Translations under genes and position numbers: made by a program | Part shown: one piece after another, positions 2,177 to 21,216 of the stretch | Numbering within the stretch: position 1 is the first letter of the stretch | Layout: each line of letters begins with the position of its first letter | Notes under the pieces: model-generated | Told to the model about the DNA's origin: nothing | Seen by the model: the letters and a program-made list of their open reading frames with translations, nothing else | Database searches by the model: none | NCBI GenBank assembly: GCA_030628975.1 | Contig: DAOVPZ010000001.1 | Location: forward strand, 1-37,911 | Length of the DNA: 37,911 nucleotides | DNA from: Candidatus Cloacimonadota bacterium | Lineage (GTDB): Bacteria > Cloacimonadota > Cloacimonadia > JGIOTU-2 | Reading direction: 5' to 3'

Positions 2177-2213
2177 ATATAAAAATTAATTAAGTGATTT
2201 AGGGTTCAAAATT

Positions 2214-2582: not shown

Positions 2583-2583
2583 T

Positions 2584-3540: not shown

Positions 3541-3545
3541 ATATT

Positions 3546-3923
3546 ATGAGAAAAATTAGAAATTATGAATTATTCAAGGTTGCTCATTCATTAGTTTTAG
3601 ATATTTATAAAATTACTACTTATTTCCCCGATAGCGAAAGATTTGGTATTATTTCTCAAATGAGACGAGCTGCTTATTCAATTCCTGCAAATATCATTGA
3701 AGGGAATACAAAAGGAGAAAAGGAATTTATTCATTTTCTTAAAATATCTTTGGGCTCTTGTGAAGAATTAAGATATTTCCTTTTGCTTTCAAAGGATTTA
3801 CAGTATTTAAAGGAAAAGGATTTTGAAAAACTTGAAGAAAGAGCTTTATATGTAATTAAGATGATAAGATCATTAATAAAAAAAATTACAAAAGAAGATC
3901 TAACCAATGCTAAAAAACGCTAA
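3546..3923 (+). CDS. Four helix bundle protein (23S rRNA intervening-sequence protein family)
   Basis: Family-typical blocks are present: LVLDIYKITTYFP, RFGIISQMRRAAYSIPANIIEG, FIHFLKISLGSCEELRYFLLLSKDL. The size is ~125 aa. Confidence 0.85.
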   Translation: MRKIRNYELFKVAHSLVLDIYKITTYFPDSERFGIISQMRRAAYSIPANIIEGNTKGEKEFIHFLKISLGSCEELRYFLLLSKDLQYLKEKDFEKLEERALYVIKMIRSLIKKITKEDLTNAKKR

Positions 3924-3924
3924 A

Positions 3925-3971
3925 GGCTATAGGCAAAAGGCTATCAGTTAACGGCTATCGGCTAAAGGCTA
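3925..3971. repeat. GGCTA-type degenerate tandem repeat array (right flank of cassette 1)
   Basis: ggctataggcaaaaggctatcagttaacggctatcggctaaaggcta. It is complementary in type to 3454-3485 and direct to 3507-3540. Confidence 0.85.
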
Positions 3972-3973
3972 AA

Positions 3974-4846
3974 ATGAACTACATTTTCCATATAATCATA
4001 ATCATTAATATTTATATTATATTGACTGTTAGTACTAATCTTTTAGTGGGAATGGCTAATTTGATTTCATTAGCCCAAGCAGCATTTTATGGGTTTGGTG
4101 CATATCTTGGAGTATTAGCTTTGATGATATTAAAACTCCCTATGATCCCAACAATCTTTTTTGTAATGTTTTTCACCGCTCTTTTAAGCTTGATTATAGC
4201 TTTTCCATCTCTTAGATTAAAAGGTGACTATTTTATATTAGCTACTTTAGGATTTCAATTAATTGTATTTACAGTTTTATATAATTGGATTTCTGTAACA
4301 AGAGGTCCTTATGGAATTCCTGGAATTCCTGCACCAAAACTTATTGGGATAATACCAGTTTCAGGCATAATTCCATTCTTAGTATTGAGTTCTATTTTAG
4401 CTGGTTTTGTTATATTTATTTTTTATAAATTAGTACATTCTCCTTTCGGTAGAGTATTGAAGGGGTTACGAGATGATGAGATTGCAGTAAAATCTCTGGG
4501 ACGAAATGTAACAAATTACAAAATATTAACATTTGCAATATCAAGTGCTTTTATTGGTATTGCTGGGTTTATTTATGCAAGTTATGTTACTTATATTGAT
4601 CCCACCAGTTTCAATTTAGATGAAGCAATATTTATACTCGCTGCAGTATTAATTGGAGGAACTGGAAATATAAAAGGACCTGTTGTAGGTGCAATTTTTG
4701 TGGTTATTTTACCTGAGCTTCTTCGTTTTGTTGGATTTCCAAGTAGTATCGCAGCTAATTTAAGACAAATTGTGTATGGTTTAGCATTAATAATTCTAAT
4801 GCGTTATAGACCCCAGGGTATAGCTGGAGAATATAAATTACAATGA
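3974..4846 (+). CDS. livM: Branched-chain amino acid ABC transporter permease (LivM type)
   Basis: A polytopic membrane protein. LISLAQAAFYGFGAYLG and GGTGNIKGPVVGAIF blocks are present. There is a 4-nt ATGA overlap with livG. Confidence 0.9.
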   Translation: MNYIFHIIIIINIYIILTVSTNLLVGMANLISLAQAAFYGFGAYLGVLALMILKLPMIPTIFFVMFFTALLSLIIAFPSLRLKGDYFILATLGFQLIVFTVLYNWISVTRGPYGIPGIPAPKLIGIIPVSGIIPFLVLSSILAGFVIFIFYKLVHSPFGRVLKGLRDDEIAVKSLGRNVTNYKILTFAISSAFIGIAGFIYASYVTYIDPTSFNLDEAIFILAAVLIGGTGNIKGPVVGAIFVVILPELLRFVGFPSSIAANLRQIVYGLALIILMRYRPQGIAGEYKLQ

Positions 4847-5673
4847 ATGAAGATATTCTACAAATTAACTCTGTAAAAAAAAGCTTTGTTCGGAATATAA
4901 TTGATGTTCGCGGTAAGGAAGAAAATGAACGATTCTTTATCATTGATGATCTGGATTTACAGATTCCTCGAGAGAAAATTACAGCCTTGATAGGTGGAAA
5001 TGGTGCAGGAAAAACCACACTTTTTAATATTATTTCCGGATTTATGAGTCCTGATTCAGGTGATATTATATATCAAGCAGAAAATAAACAAATGTCTATT
5101 ATCGGTCTATTACCATATAAAATCACTCGTCTTGGAATTGGAAGGATGTTTCAGGATGACCATATTTTTCATGATATGAGTGTATTGGATAATATGCTAT
5201 TGGCAGATGCGGATGATTTTGGAGAATTTCCTTTTATTTCTATAATTTATAATAGGAAGAATAAAATTATTGAACAGGAACGAATTGAAAAGGCAAATAG
5301 TATATTTAAGGAATTATTTGGTGAAGATAATCCTTTCTGGGAAAAAAGGGATGAGCCTGCCAAATCCCTTTCTTATGGACAGCAGCGTTTATTAGGTTTA
5401 GCGCGTCTATTTATGGGTAATTATGATTTGGTTCTGTTAGATGAACCAACCGCGGGTGTGAATCCACAGATAATTAATCAAATATTGATAATTATTCGCA
5501 GTATGGTGGAAGAAAAAGATGTGACAGTTTTTCTTATTGAACATAATATGAAAGTTGTGCTTGATTTAGCTGATTTCTGCAGTTTTATGAGTCATGGAAA
5601 AATTACTGCATTTGGAACACCAGATGATGTTATAGGTAATGATGAGGTTCGGAGAACATATTTGGGGGTATAG
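4843..5673 (+). CDS. livG: Branched-chain amino acid ABC transporter ATP-binding protein (LivG type)
   Basis: Walker A GGNGAGKTTLFN, signature LSYGQQRLLGLAR, Walker B LVLLDEPTAG, H-loop IEHNM. Confidence 0.9.
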   Translation: MNEDILQINSVKKSFVRNIIDVRGKEENERFFIIDDLDLQIPREKITALIGGNGAGKTTLFNIISGFMSPDSGDIIYQAENKQMSIIGLLPYKITRLGIGRMFQDDHIFHDMSVLDNMLLADADDFGEFPFISIIYNRKNKIIEQERIEKANSIFKELFGEDNPFWEKRDEPAKSLSYGQQRLLGLARLFMGNYDLVLLDEPTAGVNPQIINQILIIIRSMVEEKDVTVFLIEHNMKVVLDLADFCSFMSHGKITAFGTPDDVIGNDEVRRTYLGV

Positions 5674-5680
5674 GGTGTAT

Positions 5681-5747
5681 AAGTTACAAGTTGCAGGTTG
5701 CAGGTTGCAGATTAAAGGTTGCAAGTTGCAGGTTACAGGTTGCAAGG
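5681..5747. repeat. Degenerate GTTGCAG-type heptamer tandem array (left flank of cassette 2)
   Basis: aagttacaagttgcaggttgcaggttgcagattaaaggttgcaagttgcaggttacaggttgcaagg. Bases 5722-5736 are the exact reverse complement of 6221-6235. Confidence 0.9.
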
Positions 5748-5817
5748 TTTATGTATGTATGAAAAATTTTATAACCTGAAAACAATTAATTAAGGATTAT
5801 AAGTAAGAGAGACTGAA

Positions 5818-6186
5818 ATGAAATCATACAAAGACTTAGATATTTATAAAGATTCATATTCCTTTGCTATTCAAGTTCACAAATTAAGCTTGGAATTACC
5901 AAAATATGAATTGTATGAAACTGGAAGCCAGGTTAGAAGATCGTCAAAAAGTATTACTGCTAATATTGTTGAGGGATATGGAAGAAAAAGATATAAATTA
6001 GAATTTATCAGATTTTTAGTCTTTTCACATGCCAGTTGTGATGAAACGATTGTTCATTTAAAATTTATCAATGATCTATATGAAAATTTGTGTGAAAAAA
6101 CACAAGAAATGATTAGTAAGTATACTGAACTAAGTAAAAAAATATATAAGTTTATTGAATATGTTGAAAATAATTGGAAAAAATAA
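5818..6186 (+). CDS. Four helix bundle protein (23S rRNA intervening-sequence protein family), second copy
   Basis: FAIQVHKLSLELPKYE, GSQVRRSSKSITANIVEGYGR and FIRFLVFSHASCDETIVHL match the same family blocks as 3546-3923. Confidence 0.85.
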   Translation: MKSYKDLDIYKDSYSFAIQVHKLSLELPKYELYETGSQVRRSSKSITANIVEGYGRKRYKLEFIRFLVFSHASCDETIVHLKFINDLYENLCEKTQEMISKYTELSKKIYKFIEYVENNWKK

Positions 6187-6190
6187 TATT

Positions 6191-6248
6191 CAAGTTGCAT
6201 ATTCGGTTTTACAAATTATTGTAACCTGCAACTTGAAACCTGCAACCT
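6191..6248. repeat. CTGCAAC-type array (right flank of cassette 2), inverted relative to 5681-5747
   Basis: gtaacctgcaacttgaaacctgcaacct (6221-6248), plus one same-sense unit caagttgca (6191-6199). Confidence 0.9.
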
Positions 6249-6259
6249 AATTATAAATT

Positions 6260-6982
6260 ATGCTAAAAATAAAAAATTTAACAGGTGGATATAAAAAAGA
6301 AAATCCCATTCTTAAGGGAATTGATCTCACTGTAGAAGAAAACGAGGTAGTTGCTATTGTTGGCCAGAATGGTGCCGGCAAATCAACTCTTGCAAAAGCA
6401 ATAATGAATATGATTCCTTATACTTCCGGAGAAATATATTTTAATGGAGAATTGATAAATAGTTTACCAACAAACCAAATTGTTAACAAAGGATTGAATT
6501 TCTTTATGCAAGGCGGAAGGATTTTCCCTCATTTAACTATAGAAGAAAACTTGAACTATGCTGGAATGGGATTATCAAAAAAAGAACTAAAAAAAAGAAA
6601 GGAGGAATTAAAAAATGATTTTGATTTATTTAAAACTACCAATAATAAAAGATTTAACCTGAAAGCATCTTACTTAAGTGGTGGTGAACAGCACCAATTG
6701 GCACTCGCAATGGTAATGATGCAAAAACCTGAATTTTTGATTCTGGATGAACCTTCTGCTGGATTATCTCCACAGAATTTAAAAAAACTCTATAAGATTA
6801 TTGACTTCATTAGAAAAGAAAAAAAAATTAGTATTATGTTAATTGAACAAAATGTAGATATTGCAGTTAAATATTCTGATAGAATATGTCTTTTGAAAAA
6901 TGGTGTAATTGAGCGAGAAGAAAACTCAGAAAATATAAAAAATTTAGAAGAACTTAATCAGTTCTTTTTTGGAGATGTTTAA
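6260..6982 (+). CDS. livF: Branched-chain amino acid ABC transporter ATP-binding protein (LivF type)
   Basis: Walker A GQNGAGKSTLAK, signature LSGGEQHQLALA, Walker B LILDEPSAGL. Confidence 0.9.
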   Translation: MLKIKNLTGGYKKENPILKGIDLTVEENEVVAIVGQNGAGKSTLAKAIMNMIPYTSGEIYFNGELINSLPTNQIVNKGLNFFMQGGRIFPHLTIEENLNYAGMGLSKKELKKRKEELKNDFDLFKTTNNKRFNLKASYLSGGEQHQLALAMVMMQKPEFLILDEPSAGLSPQNLKKLYKIIDFIRKEKKISIMLIEQNVDIAVKYSDRICLLKNGVIEREENSENIKNLEELNQFFFGDV

Positions 6983-7019
6983 AAAATAATAAAAAAACAA
7001 AATTAAAAGGAGAATTAAG

Positions 7020-8141
7020 ATGAAAAAGAGAATCATTTCAATCGTAATGTTAATTGCTTTGATAAGCAGTTTGGTTCTAGTAAGTAGTTGTGGAAAGAAG
7101 GAAGAGGAGGTTGTAAAGATAGGGGCGATATTGCCTCTGACAGGGAATCTGGCGTTTTTAGGTAATTCTTTAAAGGTAGGATTACTAGTAGCCCAAGATG
7201 AAATTAATAAAGAAAACAAAAAGACCGATGTTATCTTTGAAGATTCAAAGGGGGAAAGCAAAACAGGATTATCTGTTGCTCAGAAATTGTTAACAGTAGA
7301 TAAGGTTGATGGGATAATAGTCTTTTTGGATGCAGTAATTGAACCAATAATTCCCCTCATCCAAGGAAAAAAATTACCTCAAATAAACTTAACTATGAAT
7401 CCCCTTATGAGTGACAAGAGTGATTGCAGCTTTACAATTTTCCCCACATCTAAATCTGAAGTACCTCCTATGCTGGAAATTATAAAAAATAAACAGCCTA
7501 ATAAAATTGCATGCCTATATAATATGAATACTCCAGGACATGTCTTCGCAATAGAAAGCAAATTATTACCAGAACTTAGGGAAATGGTATATTCTACAAA
7601 AGATCTTCTCATAGAAACTGTAGATATTACTAAAGACAAAAATTTTAGAAATCAGATGAGTAAAATATCAGCGTTTAATCCTGATCTGTTAATAGTATTT
7701 ATGATGCCCCCATTTATAAATCAGTTTTATAAGGATTTTCATACCCTGGGACTGGAAAAGAAGTGTCAGATTTTAGGTAATATGGGCTTTGTTGCAGCAC
7801 CTTCAGTTTCCAATGATTTAACAGAAGGAACAATCTTTACACTTCCTCCGTTTTATATTACAAAGTCAGAGAATATATTAAATTTTGCCAATAAATGTGA
7901 AGAGAAGCTTGGCTCTCCTCCCAGTTTAATTGAAGCAAGTTTTGGATATGATGCCTTAAAGATTTTGACCAAAGCCCTGACTCAATCTACTACTCACGAG
8001 GAAGCAATAAATTACATAGCAAAATTGAAAGGATATGAAGGAATTACAGGTCCAATTGAAACTAAGGGTAGTAATGCAAATATTGAAATGAGGTTAGTTA
8101 TAATTAAAAATGGAAAGTTTGAACAATATGAAACAAAATAG
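7020..8141 (+). CDS. ABC transporter substrate-binding lipoprotein (Leu/Ile/Val-binding protein family)
   Basis: The signal peptide carries the lipobox LVSSC. The mature N-terminus VKIGAILPLTGNLAFLG is typical of type I periplasmic binding proteins of the Liv family. The gene sits at the end of the liv operon. Confidence 0.85.
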   Translation: MKKRIISIVMLIALISSLVLVSSCGKKEEEVVKIGAILPLTGNLAFLGNSLKVGLLVAQDEINKENKKTDVIFEDSKGESKTGLSVAQKLLTVDKVDGIIVFLDAVIEPIIPLIQGKKLPQINLTMNPLMSDKSDCSFTIFPTSKSEVPPMLEIIKNKQPNKIACLYNMNTPGHVFAIESKLLPELREMVYSTKDLLIETVDITKDKNFRNQMSKISAFNPDLLIVFMMPPFINQFYKDFHTLGLEKKCQILGNMGFVAAPSVSNDLTEGTIFTLPPFYITKSENILNFANKCEEKLGSPPSLIEASFGYDALKILTKALTQSTTHEEAINYIAKLKGYEGITGPIETKGSNANIEMRLVIIKNGKFEQYETK

Positions 8142-8433
8142 AAAACCATTTACCTTAATTTCTCATATAGATAACCCTGAGTTATATGAAAAATTAATAA
8201 AGATACCAGATAAATATGAGAAGGAAATATGTAATTTTCTTAAATGTCAAATTGAGAAATTGGATCGCAAAAAAACCTTTTTAATTTTGAGTATTGGAGT
8301 AGGAAATGGTCGGATAGAGGTTCCATTAAGTAAAAAATTAATTGAGAATGGGATAAATTTTAAAGTAGTTGGAGTAGACATAAACGAAAAACAGTTAAAT
8401 TTACTGCAAAAAAAAATAAAAAAAAAACAATGA
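8110..8433 (+). CDS. Class I SAM-dependent methyltransferase-like protein, N-terminal segment (frame broken in the A9-T-A10 run at 8408-8427)
   Basis: FLILSIGVGNGRIEVPL is a motif I-like GxGxG block and FKVVGVDINEKQL is a motif II-like block. The frame ends at the TGA at 8431-8433, immediately after the poly-A run. Confidence 0.6.
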   Translation: MESLNNMKQNRKPFTLISHIDNPELYEKLIKIPDKYEKEICNFLKCQIEKLDRKKTFLILSIGVGNGRIEVPLSKKLIENGINFKVVGVDINEKQLNLLQKKIKKKQ

Positions 8434-9076
8434 AGGTACAGACAGTAACTTTGATTTATATAAAAGTGAATCAGGATTTTTAAAAGAAAAGTTTGTTCCT
8501 GGCAACTATGATGTAATAACATTTTTTAATGTCGTTAACCAATTTAGTAGAGAAAACCAATTTGGATGGAAAGACGCTCTGAATAAAGCAATTGAACTTC
8601 TAAAAGAAGGGGGTTTACTTATATTGAATGATGAAATCGGTACATTTGCATGTTTAGATGGGAATTTCGCTTTCACGAAGATTAAGAAGACACAGATTAA
8701 TTTTATAAAATTGTGCTATGGCTTTGCAAGAGCAATGCGGGTGAAGGGATTGAATAGAAATTTACATTCTCAAAGCACAGATTCAGAGGTGGTATTAAAT
8801 TGGTTAGAGTATGACAAAAAGGAGTTTCTTAAGAAAAAGTTTGAGCAATCATGGGAGTGGACAAAAAACGAGCTGAATTTAGAAGAGATATTCCAAAGCT
8901 ATATAATGTGGTTAAAGGATACTGCCTTAAATGATTTATTTACAAAGGAGAATTTGGAAAATGAATTAACCTCTAACGATAAAAATAAGTGTGAGTTCAC
9001 TCAAGGATTAAGAATTTATGGCTTTATTAAAGCAAAAGTCAAACATCAAACTAATAAAACATTATTAAGGAATTAA
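8420..9076 (+). CDS. Class I SAM-dependent methyltransferase-like protein, C-terminal segment (frame 2 open from 8420; first ATG at 8624)
   Basis: Frame 2 reads ...FLKEKFVPGNYDVITFFNVVNQFSRENQFGWKDALNKAIELLKEGGLLILNDE... This covers the motif III/IV region and the post-motif LKxGG block, continuing the fold begun in 8110-8433. Confidence 0.55.
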   Translation, partial: KKNNEGTDSNFDLYKSESGFLKEKFVPGNYDVITFFNVVNQFSRENQFGWKDALNKAIELLKEGGLLILNDEIGTFACLDGNFAFTKIKKTQINFIKLCYGFARAMRVKGLNRNLHSQSTDSEVVLNWLEYDKKEFLKKKFEQSWEWTKNELNLEEIFQSYIMWLKDTALNDLFTKENLENELTSNDKNKCEFTQGLRIYGFIKAKVKHQTNKTLLRN

Positions 9077-9079
9077 ATT

Positions 9080-10240
9080 ATGGATAAAGTTGAAGAGTTA
9101 ACCAGATTTCGTAAATTTGTGCTTAATAATCTACATCCTCTTACACAATTTAGTATCAACCCAGGAGCAGATATTGTTATAAATACTGAAAGTGATGAGT
9201 ATTTTTATGCTGCCCGAAGTCGTCTTATATCCTTAATTGAGTATGGTGTAATAAAAGATCCTATACTTGTGCTAATGCTGGGATGGTTTGAAAGCCAAAA
9301 AGAAGGGCACTGGGCTAAACGTTCATGTGCAGCAATTAAGGACTCCCCCCAACTCCCATCTTGCCTTAAAGCGATAATTAAACACATTATTAGAGGTGGT
9401 GCGTTAACTAATCTTCTCTTGGGCAAAGAGAAAGGATTCCCCCGTAAATTTAATGTTATCTTTAGATTTAAAGATAATGGAAATAAACCAGTAGAATTTT
9501 TCTTTTGGAAATCTGGAAGGTTGCGGAAGGTTGAAATTTATTTGCCTATAAAGAATACAGATTCTTGCCAAGAAAATAAGCAAAATTCTAATATTATCAA
9601 AAATATTCAAAACCAGGGAAATTACAAGGGCTTCTATTTTTATGATAATATGGATTTTATCAAGAAAGCAGAAGAAAAAAAAGCAAAAAATGAGAAAGAA
9701 GAGTTAAAGGACGATAAATTACAAAATTACCTTAATGAATTACCAGAGGAACTTTGTAATAAGTTTAAAGTTTTCAAAGATATAACTAGTGATGAATTAT
9801 GGGAAGAGTGGAAACCAGACCCAGATTTCTATAAGAATTTAATTAATAACGCAGTTAATTTTTATAAAATAATTAAGTTAACGGGAGTAGATATTTACTG
9901 GTTAGGGTATTACTTACAACCTACTCATATAAGGGAGAAATATCTCAATAGAGATAAAATTAAGAAATATGAACCTACAAATACAGAAATAATTATCTGG
10001 GGTAAGGAAGATACTAAGGTTGATGAGGATATGATTGATACATTTGCATCAATCATTACTAAGAGTGATGGAATATATGATTGGGTGGAGGAAGGCAAAT
10101 TGACAATGCGCCAACATGCTCTACGCTCTGCTGTTGCCGCGATTATGGCAAGAAATATGTCGCATAATATAGGGAGTCATGTGCTGAATTACCTATCAAA
10201 TCCGGAGGAATTAGATAAAATATGGGTAATCAAAAAATGA
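9080..10240 (+). CDS. Histidine-kinase-like protein, N-terminal segment ending in an H-box-like helix (probably the 5' part of one ~1170-codon gene)
   Basis: The segment ends ...RQHALRSAVAAIMARNMSHNIGSHVLNYLSNPEELDKIWVIKK*. The stop directly follows the A6 run at 10232-10237. With one A fewer, the frame reads through into 10284..12614 (..WVIKNEIEKLLSKEFKGITKMDKLKRE..). Confidence 0.6.
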   Translation: MDKVEELTRFRKFVLNNLHPLTQFSINPGADIVINTESDEYFYAARSRLISLIEYGVIKDPILVLMLGWFESQKEGHWAKRSCAAIKDSPQLPSCLKAIIKHIIRGGALTNLLLGKEKGFPRKFNVIFRFKDNGNKPVEFFFWKSGRLRKVEIYLPIKNTDSCQENKQNSNIIKNIQNQGNYKGFYFYDNMDFIKKAEEKKAKNEKEELKDDKLQNYLNELPEELCNKFKVFKDITSDELWEEWKPDPDFYKNLINNAVNFYKIIKLTGVDIYWLGYYLQPTHIREKYLNRDKIKKYEPTNTEIIIWGKEDTKVDEDMIDTFASIITKSDGIYDWVEEGKLTMRQHALRSAVAAIMARNMSHNIGSHVLNYLSNPEELDKIWVIKK

Positions 10241-10283
10241 GATTGAAAAACTGCTATCAAAAGAATTCAAGGGAATTACTAAA

Positions 10284-12614
10284 ATGGATAAACTAAAAAG
10301 AGAACTGATTTCTAACTTACAAGGGTATTTAAGAGAAAGGATGGATTTCATTGCTTCAATTCCAACAATGGATCCTCTCTGGACTGCTCCTCTTGATATT
10401 ATAAACGACATAATAGGACCATTCCTTGGTGGAGTTAAATATAACAGTAATTGCCCTTGTTCCCGCCTTTTTTTACTTCTGGATAATATTCTTCGATCTG
10501 AAAAAATAAGAGCAGGTGGAATAGATTTTGAGATAAAAATTTTCGACTCTGGAGATACTAATGAACCTACCTATAAACTAACTTCCGAATATGAAATACA
10601 AAATGGTGAAGTTTATTACAAATTGAAAAAACTTAAAAGGAAGGATGATAATACTTTTGAAGAAAGTGAAATTGAACCATTTAAAGCTGCGATTTATATG
10701 GGAGTTTCAGGCTGTCAGGCATTTTACGGTATTATTGAGAATATTTTAAGAAATTCTGCCCGCCACTCAAATAAAAAAGAGTTGAAGAAGATTAAAGATT
10801 ATAGTAAAAAAATAGAAAATAAACAATCTGTAAATTCAGAAAGCGAAAAACCACTAAAAATTACAATTGAATTTCATTATGATTATAATGAATACAAAGA
10901 TGATTTTCTTAAAGTAAAAATTTACGACAATATGCTTGGGTGGGAAAATGAAAATGTATGGGTAGTGAAAGAAAAAGATGAAAATGAAAAAGAGAATATA
11001 AAATTAGTATTACTGACTAGAGATAATGTAAATGAAAATGATATTATTAAAAATCTACAGAACAAAGATGAAGATTTTAAAGAAAGCCAAATTTTTAATA
11101 GAATGTTTAATCCTAAATATCCAGAAGGAAGAATTATTGATGAAACAGGAATAGTGATGGAAGGGGGTTGGGGATTGAAAGAAATGAGAATTTGTGCTTC
11201 ATTTTTAAGAGGATTGAAAATAGAAGATTATGAATCTCCTTACAATCCGCCTGTAATAAGACCTTTAATTCAAGAAGATCAAACGGATAAAAAAACTGGT
11301 AGTTTAGGAGTTGAGTTATTTATACCGAAAGTTAAAAAGCTACTCATTATAAGTAAAGAGATATATCATTGTGCTAAAAACGAAATAGAAAACCTAAAAA
11401 ATCAAGGAATTTATATAGAAAAAGACATAAACAAGATATCAGAACTTGTAGAGAAGGGAAGTTTCACACACGAATTTGTTGCAATAAATGTAGATGATAA
11501 TGTTAATACTAAATTTTTATCAGCGAATAAACTACTCCTTCCTTACAAAACAATTCATCTAAGTAGTTCAGAAAATGGTGATTTAGTTATTAACAAAGAT
11601 AAACTTAAAACTTGGCTTTCAGGTAAAAATTTGGAATTTGAAATAAATTCTTACAAATATAAAATCAGATCAATAGATGAAAAAATAATTCTTGAAGTAA
11701 AAAAAATGTGGATTAACTCTTTAAGTCAATCATATTTTCCGACAATTGGAGTTTATCCAACACAACGCACAATGTCAAAACATCCTTATTGGGATAATAA
11801 ACTAACATTTGGATGTGATTCAAACTCAATCAAGGTCAAGAATAAATTTAATATTTGTAATTTAATTAGCAACAATGTTTTTCTTCTGCATAAATTTGTT
11901 AATTTTGATAATTTTATTAAATGTAAACCTATTAGTGTTATCCCCTTTACTCATGGCGTTTCGGACCCCATAACAGTATTTAAAAAATTATTAGACAATA
12001 TTGGAGGTACTAATTATAATTTTTCAGCACTAAACTTATATTTTGATATACTGGAAACTGCTTTAACTAATGTTATCATAATTGATGAAAGGGTATTTGA
12101 AGAATCAAAGAATACCCAAAATATTTTTGTAGATGTAAATTTAGCTTTTTATTGGTATCTTCAAAATGTATTAATATTGAATTTGGATAGAGAAAATAAT
12201 AAATTTATTTTAAGGGGGCACAAAATTATCAACAATGGCGAATTGACTCAACAACCTCAAGAAATACCTATAGAAATCGATAGCAATAATAATCAGTGTA
12301 CAGAATTATCCTCTATAATACCTGACAGTTTTAGAAATAAAGTTCATTTTTTAATAATACATCAAACCATAATCCAGACAAAGATTGGCGGGAAAGCCGA
12401 ATTTGAGAAATTTAAAGATATGCTTCCTAAAGAGTATCAGCCTAAATATATTATTGTAACATCAGGAAGAGGGCATCCACCTAAAGGTGAGATGCCTGAA
12501 AATACTAAGTTTTTTGATTTCTCAAATTTAAGAAAATTTATTATTGATAGACCAAATAAATTTTTATTAACAAAGATACTAAATTCGCTGAAAGAGGAAA
12601 AGGATATAAAATGA
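10284..12614 (+). CDS. GHKL (histidine-kinase-type) ATPase domain protein with a C-terminal receiver-like alpha/beta domain (frame open from 10230)
   Basis: N-box-like IIENILRNSARHS (~10731-10770), G1-like VKIYDNMLG, G2-like EGGWGLKEMRICASFLRG (~11158-11210). The C-terminus has alternating beta-strand-like blocks VIIIDERVFEE, HFLIIHQTII and YIIVTSGRGHPP. Confidence 0.65.
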   Translation: MDKLKRELISNLQGYLRERMDFIASIPTMDPLWTAPLDIINDIIGPFLGGVKYNSNCPCSRLFLLLDNILRSEKIRAGGIDFEIKIFDSGDTNEPTYKLTSEYEIQNGEVYYKLKKLKRKDDNTFEESEIEPFKAAIYMGVSGCQAFYGIIENILRNSARHSNKKELKKIKDYSKKIENKQSVNSESEKPLKITIEFHYDYNEYKDDFLKVKIYDNMLGWENENVWVVKEKDENEKENIKLVLLTRDNVNENDIIKNLQNKDEDFKESQIFNRMFNPKYPEGRIIDETGIVMEGGWGLKEMRICASFLRGLKIEDYESPYNPPVIRPLIQEDQTDKKTGSLGVELFIPKVKKLLIISKEIYHCAKNEIENLKNQGIYIEKDINKISELVEKGSFTHEFVAINVDDNVNTKFLSANKLLLPYKTIHLSSSENGDLVINKDKLKTWLSGKNLEFEINSYKYKIRSIDEKIILEVKKMWINSLSQSYFPTIGVYPTQRTMSKHPYWDNKLTFGCDSNSIKVKNKFNICNLISNNVFLLHKFVNFDNFIKCKPISVIPFTHGVSDPITVFKKLLDNIGGTNYNFSALNLYFDILETALTNVIIIDERVFEESKNTQNIFVDVNLAFYWYLQNVLILNLDRENNKFILRGHKIINNGELTQQPQEIPIEIDSNNNQCTELSSIIPDSFRNKVHFLIIHQTIIQTKIGGKAEFEKFKDMLPKEYQPKYIIVTSGRGHPPKGEMPENTKFFDFSNLRKFIIDRPNKFLLTKILNSLKEEKDIK

Positions 12615-13822
12615 ACGTAAATATTTTTGTTTTTGGAAGAGAAAATTATTTTGAAACATTATTAAATGATGGTGAAAAAGGCGCATTAGGATTACAGACT
12701 TCTGTAATTGATGGAGAAAAAGTAATTTTTAAAAAAAAGGACAATAATTTAATTTATTTTTTACCTTACAATTTAACAAAAGAAGCATTTTTTTCTTACC
12801 TTGAGGGACAATCTGATTTAAATATAACGATTTATATTAATTCTGGCCATCTTCCTAATGACACTACCTGGAGAGAAAAAGGTAGTAGTGAAAGTGTGAA
12901 ATGCCTATCTACTGAAAAGAGGGATGCAATTTTTAGAAAAATGGTAATGGATCCTCTTATTATTATTATGACCCTTGAGAAGACTTCTTTAGCTGGTGAA
13001 GGTGAAGGTGAAATAGTAGGCTATGCTGAATGGGTTGAAATATTGAAGTGTAATAAAGCAAAATTCTATAATGATTCATTAAACCAAATCACAAAAAACC
13101 ATAGTGTTAGAATAGCAGAAATTACCCTTGACAATTACACGGTTTTATTTGTTAAAGAAAATGATTATGAGAACAAAGGAGAGCAGCTCCTTAACAATAT
13201 ATTGATCAATAATAAATGGAAATATATAGAACCTAAATATGTTGCAGTTCATGCCCTTAAACATTATATAAAAGATATATCTCAATTCAAAAATAAAGTA
13301 AAATACATATGCGATTTTCATCATTACACAGAACATGAAAGCAAAATAGATTACGAATTTTGTCAGCTTTTACTGGAATTTTTAAAATATTTTGAAAATA
13401 AACAAAGCGCAGAAGCTAAAAATAATTGTGAAGAAATAATAAAAAAAATAGAGGAATTAAGCAAAAAAATTGTTCTTGAAAGATTAACCCTTCTCAAGCA
13501 CCGCATTATAACACTCTGGCTCCCTCTTGCAATAGATATTCAGGGATTAAGTGAAGTTAATGAAGATAATGCCCAGAATTATTTTGAAAAAATAAAAGAA
13601 GATAATTATTTAAATGAAATTAAATATAGTATTAACAAACAAATTGATGAATTGAATGAAATTTTGAATGGAAAGAAGAAAATAAATAAGGGTGAAAAAG
13701 AATATTTAAACACACTTATTGGTGAATTTAATACTAAAAGCGAGATCAAAGACTTAAACCAAGAGTATTTAAATCAGGGAGACGATCTTTTCCTCCCTAA
13801 ATGGTTAGAAAGATTTGCATAA
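12611..13822 (+). CDS. Hypothetical protein (403 aa, helical/coiled-coil-rich C-terminal half)
   Basis: A long ORF with a 4-nt ATGA overlap with the upstream gene. I recognise no motif. Confidence 0.6.
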   Translation: MNVNIFVFGRENYFETLLNDGEKGALGLQTSVIDGEKVIFKKKDNNLIYFLPYNLTKEAFFSYLEGQSDLNITIYINSGHLPNDTTWREKGSSESVKCLSTEKRDAIFRKMVMDPLIIIMTLEKTSLAGEGEGEIVGYAEWVEILKCNKAKFYNDSLNQITKNHSVRIAEITLDNYTVLFVKENDYENKGEQLLNNILINNKWKYIEPKYVAVHALKHYIKDISQFKNKVKYICDFHHYTEHESKIDYEFCQLLLEFLKYFENKQSAEAKNNCEEIIKKIEELSKKIVLERLTLLKHRIITLWLPLAIDIQGLSEVNEDNAQNYFEKIKEDNYLNEIKYSINKQIDELNEILNGKKKINKGEKEYLNTLIGEFNTKSEIKDLNQEYLNQGDDLFLPKWLERFA

Positions 13823-13855
13823 AACAATTAATGAACATATTGAGCATTATAAAAA

Positions 13856-14602
13856 ATGAATAACCTTGTTTATGCCATCTTGCCAAACAAATTATTTAAT
13901 GCTTTCCAGAGATACTTACATTATATTTTTAAAATAGAAATTAAGAAAGGAATCCCTTCACAATTTAAGCAAAATGGAAAATTTTATCTTTTTATTCATG
14001 AACAAGAATTAGAAAATTGCGATATTTTTAAATACGATATTAAAGTTGTAATTTTGGGATATAATAATAATAAGCAGAAAAATTATATTAACTTACTAGA
14101 TCTTAAAAATTTTAATAGTAATCTATCTCAAATTTTTAGTTCCAATAATATTGATAATCAAGAGACAACTGATATCCGTCATCAAATTCGAGAGAAATTA
14201 GTTACATTTTTTAAAGGACATGGTGAAGAATCGCTTTTGTCATGTTTATATTCAACTCAATATTATTTATCAAATGGACCTGTTCTTTTTCAAAAAGGGA
14301 ATATCAACTATGATGAATACAAAAAAACTTTTCTTTTACCCGGTATTGAAAATTGGGAAATTTTTTCAAATAGATTAAATAAATATAAAAATTATCTGTT
14401 TGTAGCTGGTTTTGAAAATGAAGTAGGGGAAGTAATATTAAAAACAAAGCAGTTTCAAATCTTTGTTGATAAACTGAAAATTATGACTAAATCCCAATTG
14501 GAAGAAACAAGCCTAAATACATTTGTGGAAGAAAATATTTCTATAATAAAAGAAATTGATAATATTTTTTCTAATATTTATAGGAAGTTAGAAAAGAAAT
14601 GA
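13856..14602 (+). CDS. Hypothetical protein (248 aa)
   Basis: A same-strand ORF 33 nt after the previous one. I recognise no motif. Its stop overlaps the ATG of the receiver remnant (ATGA at 14599-14602). Confidence 0.55.
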   Translation: MNNLVYAILPNKLFNAFQRYLHYIFKIEIKKGIPSQFKQNGKFYLFIHEQELENCDIFKYDIKVVILGYNNNKQKNYINLLDLKNFNSNLSQIFSSNNIDNQETTDIRHQIREKLVTFFKGHGEESLLSCLYSTQYYLSNGPVLFQKGNINYDEYKKTFLLPGIENWEIFSNRLNKYKNYLFVAGFENEVGEVILKTKQFQIFVDKLKIMTKSQLEETSLNTFVEENISIIKEIDNIFSNIYRKLEKK

Positions 14603-14727
14603 AGTATAACATTTTAGTAGTAGATGATAATGAACTCAATGTAGAATCAGTCGCAACCTATCTGTTCAATTTCATTGCTCTTTTTTTTCTAAACTATGTT
14701 CTCAGAGTTTTACATGCATTTGAATAA
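14599..14727 (+). pseudogene. Truncated remnant of a response-regulator (REC) gene, paralogous to the 5' end of 16468..17889
   Basis: MKYNILVVDDNELNVESV... compares with MKYNILVVDDNKQFVESI... at 16468. By eye the nucleotide similarity is about three quarters over the first ~52 nt. The sequence then diverges and stops after 42 codons. Confidence 0.6.
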
Positions 14728-14742
14728 CTTAAGATAAAAATT

Positions 14743-16050
14743 ATGAAAAATAATAGATTAACTATTGAGGACATTATAAGGCTTGCTGCTCAGGGAGAAG
14801 GAGAAAATATTGAATTTAAGCTCAAACCTGTAAATATTGCTGAAACTATATGTGCTATGGCAAATACTTCTGGAGGTTATATCATTATAGGTGTAGATAA
14901 TAAAGGTAAGTTGACAGGTATTGCAGAGAAGGAGCAGGAAAGAATACCAGCAGACATTCAAGGTTTGATTCCTACACCCCATATTTCTATAATAAATGTA
15001 AAAGTAAATGAGAAAAATGTTTTAGTTATTAATGTAAAAAAGAGCAAAAGGTTTGTTACTCTTGGTAATAGTGCATACATAAGGATAGGTAGGAGTAATA
15101 AGGCTCTTGATTTAGAAGAACTGGCTATAATTAGTATTGAAGAATTGAAGCTAACCTTTGATTCTCTACCATCATCTGTTTCTAAATCAACTTTAAATCC
15201 ATCTCTTGTCCAGGAATATCTGGAGCTGAGGGAGAAGGTAAGAGGCATACCCATAAGAGGAAATCTTGAAGAAAATATTAAAAAATTGAAAATCATAAAA
15301 GGAGAATATTTGACCATATCTGGTCTTCTCTTTTTCACAGATAAGCCACAAGAACATCTACCCTGGACAGGCATAAGAGTGATTGAAATGTATGCAGATG
15401 GTGAGACAAAAGAGATTCTGGAATTTGACGGTCCTGTATGGAAAGTGATTGATAAAGTCTATGATACACTCATAGTCAAAATTCCAAGAACAGAAATTAG
15501 AACAGGAACCAAAAGAGAGTCCTTTCTTATTTTCCCGGAGGAATCAATAAGGGAAGGAATAATAAACGCAGTTGCGCATAGAAATTACAGAATAAGAGGT
15601 GATATTAGAATTTTCCTATCCCCTGAATCTCTTAGAATAAAAAATCCAGGAAGTTTTCCACCAGGAGTTGACATTGAAGACCCGGAACATATTCCAAGAA
15701 ACCCCATAATTTGCCAATATCTTTATGATATGGGTTATATAGAAAAATATGGATTTGGAATAATAAGAATGAGAAAAGCTGTTGAAGATCATCCAACTGC
15801 ATCAATTGATTTTAATATAGGCGCTTTGAAGACAGAAGTGATATTTGAAAGTAAAAAGAAGGCAACACTAAATGAAAATGAGCGAATAATATTGACACTC
15901 TTAAGAGCAGAACCTCTATCAAGCAGTCAGATTGCTTCACATCTAAAAATGAGCAAAGTAACAATACTTAAGAAACTTGATAGACTGCAGTCAATGAACC
16001 TGATTAAAAAGATAGGCATAGGAAGGAAAACTAAATATACTGTTTCGTAA
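14743..16050 (+). CDS. AlbA_2 (Schlafen-like) / HATPase_c_4 putative DNA-binding protein with C-terminal winged HTH (often annotated RecG-like or 'ATP-binding protein')
   Basis: N-terminal EGENIEFK ... ICAMANTSGGYIIIGVDNKGKLTGI (AlbA_2 pattern); central INAVAHRNY ... IRIKNPGSFP ... RNPIICQYLYDMGYIEKYGFGI; C-terminal ILTLLRAEPLSSSQIASHLKMSKVTILKKLDRL (wHTH). Confidence 0.75.
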   Translation: MKNNRLTIEDIIRLAAQGEGENIEFKLKPVNIAETICAMANTSGGYIIIGVDNKGKLTGIAEKEQERIPADIQGLIPTPHISIINVKVNEKNVLVINVKKSKRFVTLGNSAYIRIGRSNKALDLEELAIISIEELKLTFDSLPSSVSKSTLNPSLVQEYLELREKVRGIPIRGNLEENIKKLKIIKGEYLTISGLLFFTDKPQEHLPWTGIRVIEMYADGETKEILEFDGPVWKVIDKVYDTLIVKIPRTEIRTGTKRESFLIFPEESIREGIINAVAHRNYRIRGDIRIFLSPESLRIKNPGSFPPGVDIEDPEHIPRNPIICQYLYDMGYIEKYGFGIIRMRKAVEDHPTASIDFNIGALKTEVIFESKKKATLNENERIILTLLRAEPLSSSQIASHLKMSKVTILKKLDRLQSMNLIKKIGIGRKTKYTVS

Positions 16051-16204
16051 AGGGCGTATTAACGAAAAATGTTAACGAAAAGGTTTACGAAAAGTTTACA
16101 TTAAAAAACTCGGGACATCCCATTAAATAGGAAAAGATTTAACCCCAGTGAAATAAATAAAGATTTCACAGGGCAGGAGGGGAAGGCAACGGAGCATGAA
16201 AATA

Positions 16205-16308
16205 ACACACCCCACGGCTGAAGCCGTATACCCTCTTGCTAGAGAGGAATTCCAAAAAATCCCCTCTTGAGAGGGGTGGACACCGACTTGTCGGTGGACG
16301 GGGTGTGT
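16205..16308. other. GC-rich multi-hairpin element (candidate structured RNA or miniature repeat element)
   Basis: The closing stem ACACACCCC (16205-16213) / GGGGTGTGT (16300-16308) encloses four hairpins: ACGGC-TGAA-GCCGT, CCTCT-TGCTAG-AGAGG, CCCCTC-TTGA-GAGGGG and CACCGAC-TT-GTCGGTG. It shares CACCGACTTGTCGG and GGACGGGG with 1794-1838. Strand is unknown. Confidence 0.3.
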
Positions 16309-16467
16309 AACCTGCGTGCTATTTACATATGAAACCTACATGTCCTGAAAGAAACTCGGGACACAAAGGAGCATGAAAATTATTAAGGATTTAAAATAGT
16401 TTTATTTTATGAATAAAATATTGTTCGTGTTAGTTCGTGTGGTTCGTGGCAAAAAAAGGATTTTCAG

Positions 16468-17889
16468 ATGAAATATAATATCCTAGTTGTAGATGATAAT
16501 AAACAATTTGTAGAATCTATAAAAATTGCTTTAAAGAAATTTCATATCATAAAAGCATTTTCAATTGAAGAAGCAAAAAATAAGATAAACTCAGAAATAG
16601 ACCTTGTTTTGCTGGATTTAGTATTTGATGAAAACAATCCTGATTATTTGCAAGGGCTGGAATTCTTACCTTATATTCACAAAAATTTTCCGGATTTAAT
16701 TGTAGTAATTATGACAAATTATCCTTCCAAGGACAAAATTGTAGAATCTATTAAATCCGGTGCAGAAGATTTTTTTATTAAAAAAGAATTGGAATGGTCG
16801 GAATGGGAAAAAAGAATAGAAAATTATTGTAGAAATTCACAGAAAATCCGTGAATTAAAAACAAAAAAAAAGGAATTAGAAGAGAAGTATGATGATTCTG
16901 AAATTATTGGAGTTAGTCCTGAAATAGAATTTGTAAAACGGAAACTTCGGGATATAGCACAGCATAGCGATGATATAACTGTCTTTATTCAAGGAGAGAC
17001 CGGAACAGGGAAAAATCTGGCAGTTAAGTATTTCAGAAAATATTCAAAAAGGAAAGAGAAACCATATAAAGAATTTTCTATTTTTGAATTAGCCGATTCT
17101 GTGTTAGAAAGTGAATTATTCGGACATATAAAGGGCTCTTTTACTGGTGCAGATAAAGATAAGATTGGTCTTTTTGAAGCAGCAAATGGAGGCATACTCT
17201 TCCTTGACGAAATTGGTGACTATGATTTAAAAACACAGAAAAAAATTATGAGGTTTATGGAAGATAAGACTATTAGTCCTGTTGGGAGTAACAAAAGTAA
17301 AAAGTTAGACCTCCAATTAATAATGGCAACCAATCAAGATATTCCAGAACTTATCAAAAAAGGTAGATTCAGAGAAGATTTATATCAGAGAATCAATAGG
17401 ATAAAAATTGATTTACCTTCATTAAGAGAAAGAAGAGAGGATATTAAGATTCTAACAGATTACTTTTTTAAACATTTTAGAATAAAAGAAAAAACCAATC
17501 TTAAAGTAATATCAAATGAAGTATATGATATCTTTTACAATTACCAATGGCCTGGTAATGTTAGAGAATTGCAATCAGTTATCTGGGAAGCCTGCACAAA
17601 TGCACGTTTATACAATGATTCAATATTAACTAACAAGCATTTAAGAAAAGAACTAACATCAAAAAATTCTATATTTCAAAACGAAAATGATGATTTAGTA
17701 GTAAAAAAGGCAGAGCTGGAATTAGAAGCGATTGATAAAGCATTAGAAAAAACTTACGGGCGTAAAGCAGAAGCTGCAAAATTGTTGGGAATGAATGCAG
17801 ATCAATTAAGGTATAGGGTATTGAAATTCTATAAAGAAAATAAAATAGATATTAATAAATTTAGAAATATAAGGAAGTATTATGTGTAA
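16468..17889 (+). CDS. Sigma54-dependent response regulator (REC - AAA+ sigma54-interaction domain - Fis-type HTH; NtrC family)
   Basis: REC: ILVVDDN, LVLLDL, VVIMTN, FFIKK. AAA+: Walker A GETGTGKN, GAFTGA-type loop GSFTGA, Walker B ILFLDEIG, FREDLYQRI, WPGNVRELQ. C-terminal GRKAEAAKLLGMNADQLRYRV. Confidence 0.9.
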   Translation: MKYNILVVDDNKQFVESIKIALKKFHIIKAFSIEEAKNKINSEIDLVLLDLVFDENNPDYLQGLEFLPYIHKNFPDLIVVIMTNYPSKDKIVESIKSGAEDFFIKKELEWSEWEKRIENYCRNSQKIRELKTKKKELEEKYDDSEIIGVSPEIEFVKRKLRDIAQHSDDITVFIQGETGTGKNLAVKYFRKYSKRKEKPYKEFSIFELADSVLESELFGHIKGSFTGADKDKIGLFEAANGGILFLDEIGDYDLKTQKKIMRFMEDKTISPVGSNKSKKLDLQLIMATNQDIPELIKKGRFREDLYQRINRIKIDLPSLRERREDIKILTDYFFKHFRIKEKTNLKVISNEVYDIFYNYQWPGNVRELQSVIWEACTNARLYNDSILTNKHLRKELTSKNSIFQNENDDLVVKKAELELEAIDKALEKTYGRKAEAAKLLGMNADQLRYRVLKFYKENKIDINKFRNIRKYYV

Positions 17890-18337
17890 TGCAGACAAAC
17901 TGTTAAAATCGATTATGAACTATGTAAAATATTTAAATACAACTGATAAAAAATTAGATATAAAGATCAATGGAAATAATACTATGACCTTAAATAGTAA
18001 AACTATAAATTTTCAGTATATATTTAATATTGAAGATGATTTATCATTGAGAAAAATAGTTCAAAATTTTGAAGAAAATAATATTACCGATTTTTATGTT
18101 ATAATAGATTTATTCAAAAATATTAATGAATGGATTACAATTGAATATGTTCGTAAATTACAATTAACAATAGATTATTTGGAAAATCATAAAATGGGTA
18201 AAAGACTTTGTCCTTTTGGGGAGAATACGAAAAATTCCTTTGAAATAACCCTGCAATATTTTCATAATCAATCTTTCAAGGATATTTTAGATAAAACCAC
18301 TATAAATAATATAAATATTTATATCTTAAAGGCATAA
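17882..18337 (+). CDS. Hypothetical protein (151 aa)
   Basis: There is an 8-nt overlap with the upstream activator gene, and the next gene starts 3 nt later. I recognise no motif. Confidence 0.55.
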   Translation: MCNADKLLKSIMNYVKYLNTTDKKLDIKINGNNTMTLNSKTINFQYIFNIEDDLSLRKIVQNFEENNITDFYVIIDLFKNINEWITIEYVRKLQLTIDYLENHKMGKRLCPFGENTKNSFEITLQYFHNQSFKDILDKTTINNINIYILKA

Positions 18338-18340
18338 GTA

Positions 18341-21211: not shown

Positions 21212-21216
21212 AATTT

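Follow-up and report, generated by a model that had tools for sequence, protein, structure and literature searches.

The window analysed here is a stretch of 37,911 nucleotides from a Candidatus Cloacimonadota bacterium (contig DAOVPZ010000001.1), and its plus strand carries a nearly unbroken string of genes between 2214 and 21582. The segment 8110-14602 within this string holds five open reading frames (ORFs), namely a methyltransferase, two kinase-like ORFs of 386 and 776 amino acids (aa), and two further ORFs of 403 and 248 aa. Our preferred view, which we hold as probable, is that this segment forms the processing core of a conserved transporter-linked phosphorelay spanning approximately 2161-21582 (~19 kb). 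The gene order shared with other loci comprises a stand-alone receiver (in several loci), an ATP-binding cassette (ABC) importer dependent on a solute-binding protein (SBP), an S-adenosylmethionine (SAM) enzyme (present in many of them), one or more kinase-like genes, a protein that we call Y (300-480 aa) and receiver-containing proteins. A neighbourhood comparison found the same plan around distant homologues of only 24-37% identity. A sequence-only reading of the window had described 8110-14602 as an orphan operon and had not assigned the stand-alone receiver and the ABC importer (2214-8141) to it. Both are part of the conserved locus, and the locus recurs across many bacterial phyla. It is a real, conserved and unannotated system, and full-text literature searches on the motif and component combination found no description of the kinase family or the locus.

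The first of the two kinase-like ORFs (9080-10240, plus strand; 386 aa, subunit N) consists of a variable, poorly conserved N-terminal region followed by helix 1 of a putative dimerization and histidine phosphotransfer (DHp) domain, which bears the invariant H-box RNMSHNIGSH (10151-10180) containing His362 and His367. The second (10284-12614, plus strand; 776 aa, subunit C) continues with DHp helix 2, YLRERMDFIAS (10332-10358), and a Bergerat-like catalytic and ATP-binding (CA) domain (~10383-11240) with the N-box ENILRNSARH (10737-10766), the G1 box IYDNMLGW (10920-10943) and the G2 box GGWGLKEMR (11163-11189), followed by a pseudo-domain of receiver topology and a family-specific α/β domain at the C-terminus. 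The H-box-like helix, the N-, G1- and G2-boxes and the C-terminal motifs that the sequence-only reading had picked out were all found where it had placed them. These motifs are far beyond chance, since no other columns are as conserved when homologues of only 20-50% identity are aligned. The conserved blocks in such sequences read RNMSHNIGSH, YLxxRMDFIA and G.QAFY.ILEN.IRNSAKH (N-box), followed by V.I.DN (G1), G.WG.KEM.I (G2) and finally DER, His, (S/T)GRG and Lys, which belong to the last domain. RNMSHNIGSH itself is invariant in 16 of 16 aligned fused homologues and present in all 35 fused sequences examined, and conservation in the homologue alignment is at least 90% at N558, D616, G698, E553, N554 and R557. 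The H-box had been set apart from the HisKA type, a distinction that did not survive: ARNMSHNIGSHVL resembles the canonical HisKA pattern ANMSHELRTPL.

Searches with the merged kinase against Pfam, NCBIfam, PADLOC and PDB sequences gave no match. The AlphaFold2 (AF2) model of the merged protein (pTM 0.73) is confident from residue 330 on and predicts long helices at 330-372, carrying the H-box, and at 401-426, then an α/β domain with a disordered lid, a (βα)5 domain at ~750-885 and a final α/β domain. The conserved His is thereby placed on the first helix of a hairpin directly before the catalytic domain, as would be expected of a class I histidine kinase. When the whole model was compared with the PDB using Foldseek, the top matches were WalK, LOV-histidine kinase chimeras, the CA domain of VraS, and MprB (E 0.02-0.6), and no GHL ATPase (MORC, MutL, Hsp90 or GyrB) occurred among the top 50. 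The family profile found CpxA as its best match among PDB sequences (E = 0.017), aligned exactly on the N-box, and hhalign against HK853 ran in register from the N-box to G1 (P = 0.004), an alignment that we take as a lead only. HATPase_c was the only Pfam family matched by several members (7 of 44, sub-threshold, best E 8e-4). The residues typical of the Bergerat fold, N554, N558, D616 and G698, are conserved, yet the window protein lacks a Pfam match and its Foldseek matches to histidine kinases lie at E of at least 0.02. Furthermore, the N-box (E-N-I-L-R-N-S-A-R-H) fits the NxxxNxxRH of kinases and not the ExxxNxxD of GHL proteins. The proposal of a histidine-kinase-like GHKL protein is therefore supported: by its N-box, the CpxA profile match, the top Foldseek matches and the HATPase_c matches in 7 of 44 members it appears histidine-kinase-like rather than MORC/MutL/Hsp90-like.

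We also considered whether the protein might be a GHKL ATPase that is not a protein histidine kinase, that is, a BCK/PDK or anti-sigma-type Ser/Thr kinase, a small-molecule kinase or a MORC/MutL-like clamp, with the receivers phosphorylated otherwise, for example by acetyl phosphate or a distant kinase. Every kinase similarity being sub-threshold would agree with this, as would an H-box without an acidic residue after the His and a large conserved C-terminal domain whose enzyme-like DER/H/SGRG/K residues have no kinase counterpart. We nevertheless judge it improbable by a wide measure. The N-box is of the histidine kinase type, Foldseek returned several histidine kinases and none of the GHL proteins, and the strictly invariant SH helix stands right before helix 2 and the CA domain, which is the DHp plus CA arrangement. 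In addition, intact receivers are near-universal nearby, and a canonical partner for them was not seen: no window ORF tested gave a HisKA or HATPase_c match in Pfam, as the sequence-only reading had claimed for the HisKA kinases, and neither did the called genes of the six Pfam-annotated relative loci (L001, L002, L005, L007, L009 and L091). The explanation that we find most convincing as a whole, and consider rather likely, is that the products of ORFs 9080-10240 and 10284-12614 jointly make up a histidine kinase, class-I-like but very divergent; the sequence comparisons and the model are consistent with this at a sub-threshold level.

The kinase-like proteins form a large family. When a profile built from their C-terminal domain was run against 1.84 billion representatives, it matched 2,908 clusters (50% identity) with a cut-off of E <= 1e-3 and 2,406 with one of E <= 1e-10, the matches always being C-terminal in large proteins. 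A pattern scan of GTDB species genomes located 89 loci, found in metagenome-assembled genomes of many bacterial phyla and in a few archaeal bins; viral contigs gave one match among 2.9 million. The neighbourhood of the kinase gene was then summarised for two sets of loci. Of the 35 loci in which the flanking sequence on either side reached at least 7 kb, 31 encode at least one protein with a receiver (REC) domain, and in 29 of the 35 a REC protein exceeds 300 aa, i.e. REC is fused to an output domain. These fused outputs vary from locus to locus and include σ54-type AAA+ proteins, Cad1-like deaminases, HerA/TraG-like ATPases, FtsH-like AAA-proteases, HD-like proteins, a pyridoxal phosphate (PLP) decarboxylase and other proteins. 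In the second set, 44 non-redundant loci whose upstream sequence measures at least 7 kb, the kinase gene is preceded by an ABC importer in 36, and it belongs to the HAAT class of the window (BPD_transp_2/Peripla_BP_6) in 18 loci, to an NMT1/THI5 class (SBP with BPD_transp_1) in ten and to an Opp-like class (SBP_bac_5) in six, with only the ATPase present in the remaining two. The idea that a non-canonical kinase acts as phosphodonor to the receiver proteins downstream of it, which the sequence-only reading had put forward together with a check for such co-occurrence, is thus supported by gene neighbourhoods and is the best-supported reading.

The two kinase-like ORFs can be merged, as had been pointed out, into one frame of 1177 aa by taking one A from the A6 run at 10232-10237. 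The conclusion drawn from this, a single ~1170-aa protein interrupted by a frameshift, was not borne out, the break being a conserved gene boundary both in assemblies and in relatives. The A6 junction is unchanged in three assemblies of the organism (the window and two independent Logan assemblies), and the NCBI record annotates two genes here. Four relatives (L001, L002, L011 and L091), with C-subunits 43-50% identical, have the same two-gene split and intact ORFs. In all four the first gene ends in ...NMSHNIGSHVLNYLSNPEEL..LW(V/I)I*, and the second contains the MDELKRKL... helix; it begins at this helix in L001 and L091, and in L002 (P0005) its called start is 21 residues further upstream and overlaps the first gene by 13 nt. 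The relative frame of the second gene is +1 in the window and L001 and +2 in L002 and L011, and the spacing between the two genes of this split ranges from the 13-nt overlap to a 49-nt gap. In three Acidobacteriota members (L048, L054 and L072) the break sits in the same loop but a few residues earlier; it came about independently, so the split arose at least twice. The position concerned is the loop between the two DHp helices, and fused homologues join these helices by loops as short as 4 residues. DHp and CA domains lie on one polypeptide in most other members of the family, the more distant homologues being single polypeptides of 900-1700 aa, but not in this lineage or in the Acidobacteriota.

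Since the A6 run is the same in three assemblies and the relatives are split alike in different frames, the sequences indicate that the split is a natural, selectively maintained two-subunit arrangement, and neither a dead gene nor a conserved programmed frameshift. A programmed frameshift was ruled out by the different frames that the relatives use. Hence we give very little credence to the alternative that the two ORFs are made as one 1177-aa protein, be it by programmed +1 frameshifting at AAA-AAA-TGA (10232-10240), or with the A6 run being a sequencing error or a recent inactivating mutation, which would mean a dead gene. The fusion of the frames on removal of one A would suit it, as would the single polypeptides P0019, P0022 and P0035 among the distant homologues and the resemblance of what frame 0 encodes from the stop up to the ATG at 10284 to the N-terminal extension of P0003 and P0005. 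These points are set against a junction shared by three assemblies, four relatives that keep two intact genes, frames and spacings that vary in a manner unlike a conserved frameshift site, the independent split in the same loop in Acidobacteriota, and an ATG of its own for the second ORF with a purine-rich AAGGGA 9 nt upstream.

Beyond the CA domain, subunit C contains a receiver-topology pseudo-domain (~11328-11735, plus strand; merged residues ~750-885) with degenerate active-site and acidic residues, and then the C-terminal α/β domain (11733-12611, plus strand), in which the invariant DER, His, (S/T)GRG and Lys appear and the motifs IIIDERV (12075-12095), FLIIHQT (12348-12368) and VTSGRG (12456-12476) are found. 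The sequence-only reading had seen a receiver-like strand pattern in the last ~230 aa. The strand-end motifs are real and are the most conserved of the family, but the receiver identity was not upheld. A separate AF2 model of the last 293 residues (pLDDT 82.6, pTM 0.86) found nothing better than E 0.04 and TM 0.33 in the PDB by Foldseek, with no receiver in the top 50. The domain profile had no match among PDB sequences, a jackhmmer REC profile matched no member of the kinase family, and an invariant His stands where a receiver would have its acceptor Asp. In view of this lack of PDB neighbours and receiver matches and of the His at the acceptor position, we treat the domain as a family-specific α/β domain that is not demonstrably a receiver. 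The middle domain is the most probable source of the receiver matches obtained with the whole protein.

At its upstream end the locus begins with a candidate σ54 (-24/-12) promoter, TGGCATAATTTTTGTT, at 2161-2176 on the plus strand, 38 nt before the first gene and with 2 mismatches. The strict pattern TGGCA[CT]N5TTGC occurs in the relatives at 15 sites in 1.38 Mb, against ~0.1 expected, and six of these 15 lie just upstream of an importer operon (six loci). The first gene encodes a stand-alone receiver of 122 aa (2214-2582, plus strand; Pfam Response_reg 5e-17) with an intact DD / D52 / S / K set, and its stop abuts the start of the first permease gene. In L007, L009, L013, L019, L023, L045 and L056, too, a stand-alone receiver belongs to the importer operon or adjoins it, being placed either at the operon's head or immediately ahead of the SBP gene. 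The HAAT-type importer (2584-8141, plus strand; Pfam BPD_transp_2, ABC_tran and Peripla_BP_6) comprises two permeases (2584-3453 and 3974-4846), two ATPases (4843-5673 and 6260-6982) and a lipoprotein SBP (7020-8141). Two small 23S_rRNA_IVP/bAvd-like ORFs (3546-3923 and 5818-6186; Pfam 6e-34 and 1e-25) sit between its genes. Another such four-helix-bundle ORF was seen in the distant locus L007 (6119-6508), elsewhere in the operon, and these ORFs look like recurrent small insertions into this type of importer operon.

The importer is followed by a class I SAM-dependent methyltransferase (8110-9076, plus strand; Pfam Methyltransf_12/25/31, E ~1e-10) whose frame is broken at an A10 run (8418-8427), so that the earlier description of a methyltransferase-like ORF interrupted in a poly-A run was correct. 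Window 1952-16148 is also covered by L003, which was assembled independently from the same organism and agrees with it at 99.986% identity; its sole gap relative to the window is an A9 in place of this A10, with an intact gene of 315 aa. Because of this the break is, on comparison of the two assemblies, either a homopolymer length variant or an error of assembly. The gene contains two homopolymers next to each other (A9, T, A10) at 8408-8427, where one base turns the gene on or off, and the A9/A10 difference could be an assembly error or phase variation. Many relatives have a class I methyltransferase or a radical-SAM enzyme in the upstream block, usually in the interval between importer and kinase or at the head of an Opp-like importer operon. 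SAM enzymes are fused to the kinase in P0097, P0022, P0043, P0068 and P0071; the methyltransferase in particular is joined to the N-terminal part of the kinase in P0097 and L091, whereas P0022 has it joined to the kinase as a whole. The methyltransferase also matches mad2, and membership of the MADS system was ruled out, as only the generic methyltransferase fold was covered and no other Mad protein was matched.

Downstream of the kinase lies its conserved partner Y (12611-13822, plus strand; 403 aa), with an invariant His297 in KHR..L.LP..ID.QGL and a near-invariant His214. Homologues of Y (clusters f14, f15 and f16) directly follow the kinase gene in 17 loci. Y matched no known family, its profile gave only coiled-coil noise against the PDB, and the nine matches of this profile in a 5.8-billion protein set are all unannotated. 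The N-terminal α/β part of Y was examined as a possible paralogue of the kinase's C-terminal domain and rejected (hhalign probability 0.7%). The 248-aa ORF (13856-14602, plus strand) has homologues only in the closest relatives L003, L004 and L091, and jackhmmer searches with it and with a 151-aa ORF further downstream found only near-identical copies among all locus genes. The proposed ATGA coupling of the 403- and 248-aa ORFs proved to be partly right: ATGA overlaps exist at 12611-12614, between the second kinase ORF and the 403-aa ORF, and at 14599-14602, between the 248-aa ORF and a REC remnant, but the 403- and 248-aa ORFs themselves are 33 nt apart and do not overlap.

The REC remnant marks the place where the locus was interrupted. 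It is the 5' end of a REC-σ54 gene (14599-14648, plus strand; 50 nt, MKYNILVVDDN...) that overlaps the stop of the 248-aa ORF and is 80% identical to 16468-16517, the beginning of the intact gene. The DNA inserted downstream of it (14743-16467, plus strand) comprises a Schlafen-type gene with AlbA_2, HATPase_c_4 and winged helix-turn-helix (HTH) parts (14743-16050) and a 417-nt spacer. L091 has the same scar, with only the last 234 nt of the Schlafen-type gene left, and in other relatives the string that holds the kinase also holds the REC-σ54 gene, 1 to 4 genes further downstream, with neither scar nor inserted gene. The sequence-only reading had suspected that the genes up to 14602 and those from 16468 on are one system split by an insertion. 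As the REC-gene remnant marks the original junction, the two parts were once contiguous, and a single system interrupted by an insertion is well supported by this comparison of sequences. The Schlafen-type protein gives weak PADLOC matches to pAgo-associated and CasR/Csa3-type models. The noncoding stretch 16050-16467, especially 16150-16330, is GC-rich within a context of 27-30% GC and is predicted to fold into multiple hairpins (-66 kcal/mol, z = -4.9); short direct repeats flank it (16103-16117 and 16349-16363), it is absent from L091, and an Rfam scan gave no match to it or to any other part of the window. Two independent assemblies, L003 and L004, both stop at window position 16148, which suggests a repeated or variable element.

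After the insertion come the receiver outputs. The first (16468-17889, plus strand; 473 aa) is an NtrC-type enhancer-binding protein with REC, σ54-interacting AAA+ and Fis-type HTH domains (Pfam 1e-53, 1.5e-11 and 1.4e-9), the loop GSFTGA and a full-length match to the NtrC1 structures 4l4u and 1ny5; it thus has the receiver, the AAA+ loop and the HTH that define a σ54 enhancer-binding protein of this type. Its end is overlapped by the 151-aa ORF (17882-18337, plus strand), and a 143-aa ORF occupies the same position in L091. The second output (18341-21211, plus strand; 956 aa) is a receiver-fused adenosine deaminase of the Cad1/CARF-ADA type, with REC at about residues 150-320 and the deaminase at 344-954 (Pfam A_deaminase 1e-36, Response_reg 4.5e-5; PADLOC CARF_ADA 1.8e-81). 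Its nearest solved structures are CARF-ADA proteins (PDB 9c67, 7e-23). The deaminase part accords with the Cad1/CARF-ADA family, but the N-terminal half holds a receiver where the family has CARF. The string ends with a membrane-anchored OB-fold protein (21217-21582, plus strand; 121 aa), in whose place L091 has a 120-aa ORF. Of the four receivers counted by the sequence-only reading, those at 2214, 16468 and 18341 are intact and the one at 14599 is a 5' remnant only, as it had noted.

GAFTDA or GSFTDA replaces GAFTGA in the σ54-contact loop of several σ54-type AAA+ proteins encoded downstream of the kinase (L002, L005, L014, L016, L055 and L071). Many Bacteroidota loci encode REC-fused proteins of 600-900 aa without a σ54 domain, so that the transcriptional arm is not universal. 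Beyond the locus, the minus strand of the window at 21930-30792 holds four genes, for a 442-aa VWA protein, a Tubulin_2-like protein of 1038 aa, a protein of 603 aa and an 861-aa DEAD-helicase/terminase-like protein with a weak Peptidase_M1 match. L091 has counterparts of the three genes nearest the locus (helicase-like, 603-aa and Tubulin_2) at the corresponding position, the stretch fetched from it ending inside the Tubulin_2 gene, and this cluster may be a separate conflict system. Further on, a 1195-aa fusion of 2Fe-2S, 4Fe-4S, Pyr_redox_2 and molybdopterin-oxidoreductase parts (31001-34588) is followed by minus-strand glutamate-synthase-like and ferredoxin-like genes; this region is ordinary redox metabolism unrelated to the locus.

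These data are consistent with a model in which subunits N and C would assemble into a four-helix DHp bundle and ATP held by the CA domain would be used to phosphorylate His362 (or His367), the phosphoryl group then passing to the intact Asp of the three locus receivers. The stand-alone receiver might serve as a sink or as a regulator of the transporter. The NtrC-type activator would drive σ54 promoters, probably including one before the locus, and so give feed-forward expression, and the receiver-fused Cad1-like deaminase, once phosphorylated, would deaminate adenosine nucleotides. The input would be provided by the co-encoded SBP-dependent importer together with a SAM-dependent methylation step, which we infer because an importer of any of three classes precedes the kinase in most relatives and many of them have a SAM enzyme, sometimes fused to the kinase. 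The role of the whole could be to mount a response to stress or conflict (defence-like), with nucleotide depletion as its end point and a Detocs-like logic; this is the weakest step of the model. The swappable, effector-like outputs point to it, as do the neighbours, namely the VWA/kinase/FHA and HEPN/nucleotidyltransferase (NTase) genes in L002 and, in the window, the Tubulin_2/VWA/helicase genes and the Schlafen insertion.

Several observations weigh against this model. The kinase reaches no formal family threshold, and all its structure and profile matches to kinases have E of at least 0.004. An Asn follows the putative phospho-His in place of the usual Glu or Asp, and there are two invariant His residues, so that either may be the phospho-acceptor. 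The σ54-like site of the window is weak, and the count of such sites within the window is not above chance. The canonical GAFTGA loop is found in only some of the associated AAA+ proteins. The co-occurrence figures come without a matched genomic control. An ABC importer is unusual in a defence system, and the PNP_UDP_1 gene of L002, considered as a Detocs-type nucleosidase, had no PADLOC match to a defence-type PNP and could simply recycle SAM by-products.

The most serious competitor keeps the same parts and the phosphorelay and assigns them to ordinary nutrient or metabolite sensing, as a two-component regulon coupled to transport in the manner of PhoR-PstSCAB-PhoU or of uptake under NtrBC: the kinase would read the activity of the importer or the imported, methylated solute, and would switch on σ54-dependent expression of transporter and purine/nucleoside enzymes, with no defence role. 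We regard this as a possible but less likely explanation. It draws on the fact that nutrient-type SBP-dependent importers (LivHMGF-like, NMT1/THI5 and Opp-like) are the most constant neighbours of the kinase, on the σ54 sites before importer operons and on nearby nucleoside-metabolism genes (IU_nuc_hydro and PNP_UDP_1), and it sits well with the absence of PADLOC matches for the kinase, Y or most outputs and with a family essentially absent from viral contigs. In contrast, the outputs vary by locus and include typical conflict effectors fused to REC, such as the ~1000-aa Cad1-type deaminase, an FtsH-like AAA-protease, a HerA/TraG-like ATPase and an HD-like protein, and a further REC output (cluster f7, ~630 aa) has a hydrophobic, probably membrane-spanning C-terminus. 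A single defined nutrient is made less likely by the interchange of three unrelated importer classes, and loci lie beside VWA/kinase/FHA, HEPN/NTase, Tubulin_2/VWA and Schlafen-type genes.

A bolder version of the phosphorelay model is doubtful in our estimation, and clearly less likely than nutrient sensing. It would make the locus one of a widespread, hitherto unrecognised class of importer-gated alarm or immune phosphorelays, in which an extracellular cue is imported, methylated and read in the cytoplasm by the new kinase family, whose DHp could be put together from two polypeptides, the C-terminal domain (His in place of the receiver Asp) being catalytic or active in phosphotransfer, and in which σ54 feed-forward and toxic receiver-effectors, here an ATP deaminase, would link community-level danger sensing to an abortive response. 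Whichever role applies, at least 2,400 clusters (50% identity) without a Pfam, NCBIfam or PADLOC model constitute an annotation gap. If the family consists of true histidine kinases, an entire branch of two-component signalling escapes the census methods now in use, and many 'orphan' receiver-effector proteins would gain a partner.

Two-component systems coupled to transport include PhoR/PhoB with PstSCAB-PhoU and BceRS with BceAB. In both, as at this locus, a kinase without a periplasmic sensor stands beside an ABC transporter, which would here be the source of the input. The PhoR with PstSCAB-PhoU type is the nearest analogue for the input side, and Y could act as a PhoU-like adaptor. The locus differs in that its kinase is without membrane segments, the importers belong to three interchangeable classes, a methyltransferase or radical-SAM enzyme is part of the module, and the outputs are mostly enzymes rather than one DNA-binding regulator. 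The linkage of importers of three unrelated classes with SAM enzymes suggests a route of import, modification, sensing and phosphorylation that is not in textbooks. The NtrB/NtrC system offers a likeness on the output side, with a full-length NtrC1-like REC-AAA+-HTH activator (16468-17889) and σ54 consensus sites in the loci, whereas the locus kinase does not resemble NtrB and other receiver outputs stand beside the activator.

Split histidine kinases are known from CheA3/CheA4 of Rhodobacter sphaeroides and from pairs of HisKA-only and HATPase-only proteins (PMC3591291). Here too the phospho-accepting His and the ATP-binding domain would reside on different, associating polypeptides. The known cases divide whole domains (P1 from P3-P5, or DHp from CA), whereas the locus break falls inside the DHp hairpin, between helix 1 and helix 2. 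Its recurrence provides a natural test of a four-helix bundle, and of autophosphorylation, built from four chains.

Detocs consists of the sensor kinase DtcA, the stand-alone receiver DtcB and the receiver-effector DtcC (Rousset et al., bioRxiv 10.1101/2023.01.24.525353). The locus resembles it in combining a cytoplasmic kinase (9080-12614), a receiver-only protein (2214-2582) and a receiver fused to a putative nucleotide-depleting enzyme (18341-21211), and in an effector domain that is swappable between loci. Chemistry directed at ATP is likely here too, since the locus deaminase is, by sequence, of the Cad1 type. In contrast to Detocs, no protein of the locus matched the PADLOC Detocs models when all were scanned; the kinase belongs to another, unannotated family with extra C-terminal domains and is split here, the effector is a deaminase where Detocs has a PNP nucleosidase, and an ABC importer, a SAM enzyme, a σ54 activator and Y are added. 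Cad1 and other CARF-fused adenosine deaminases convert ATP to ITP (PMC11645235, PMC12669630), and it is this family that the 956-aa protein comes nearest to in its deaminase domain. Its sensor domain is a receiver and not CARF, and hence its activation would be by phosphorylation and not by cyclic oligoadenylate. Such a receiver-fused Cad1-like deaminase would represent a second, phosphorylation-driven control of an ATP-to-ITP effector.

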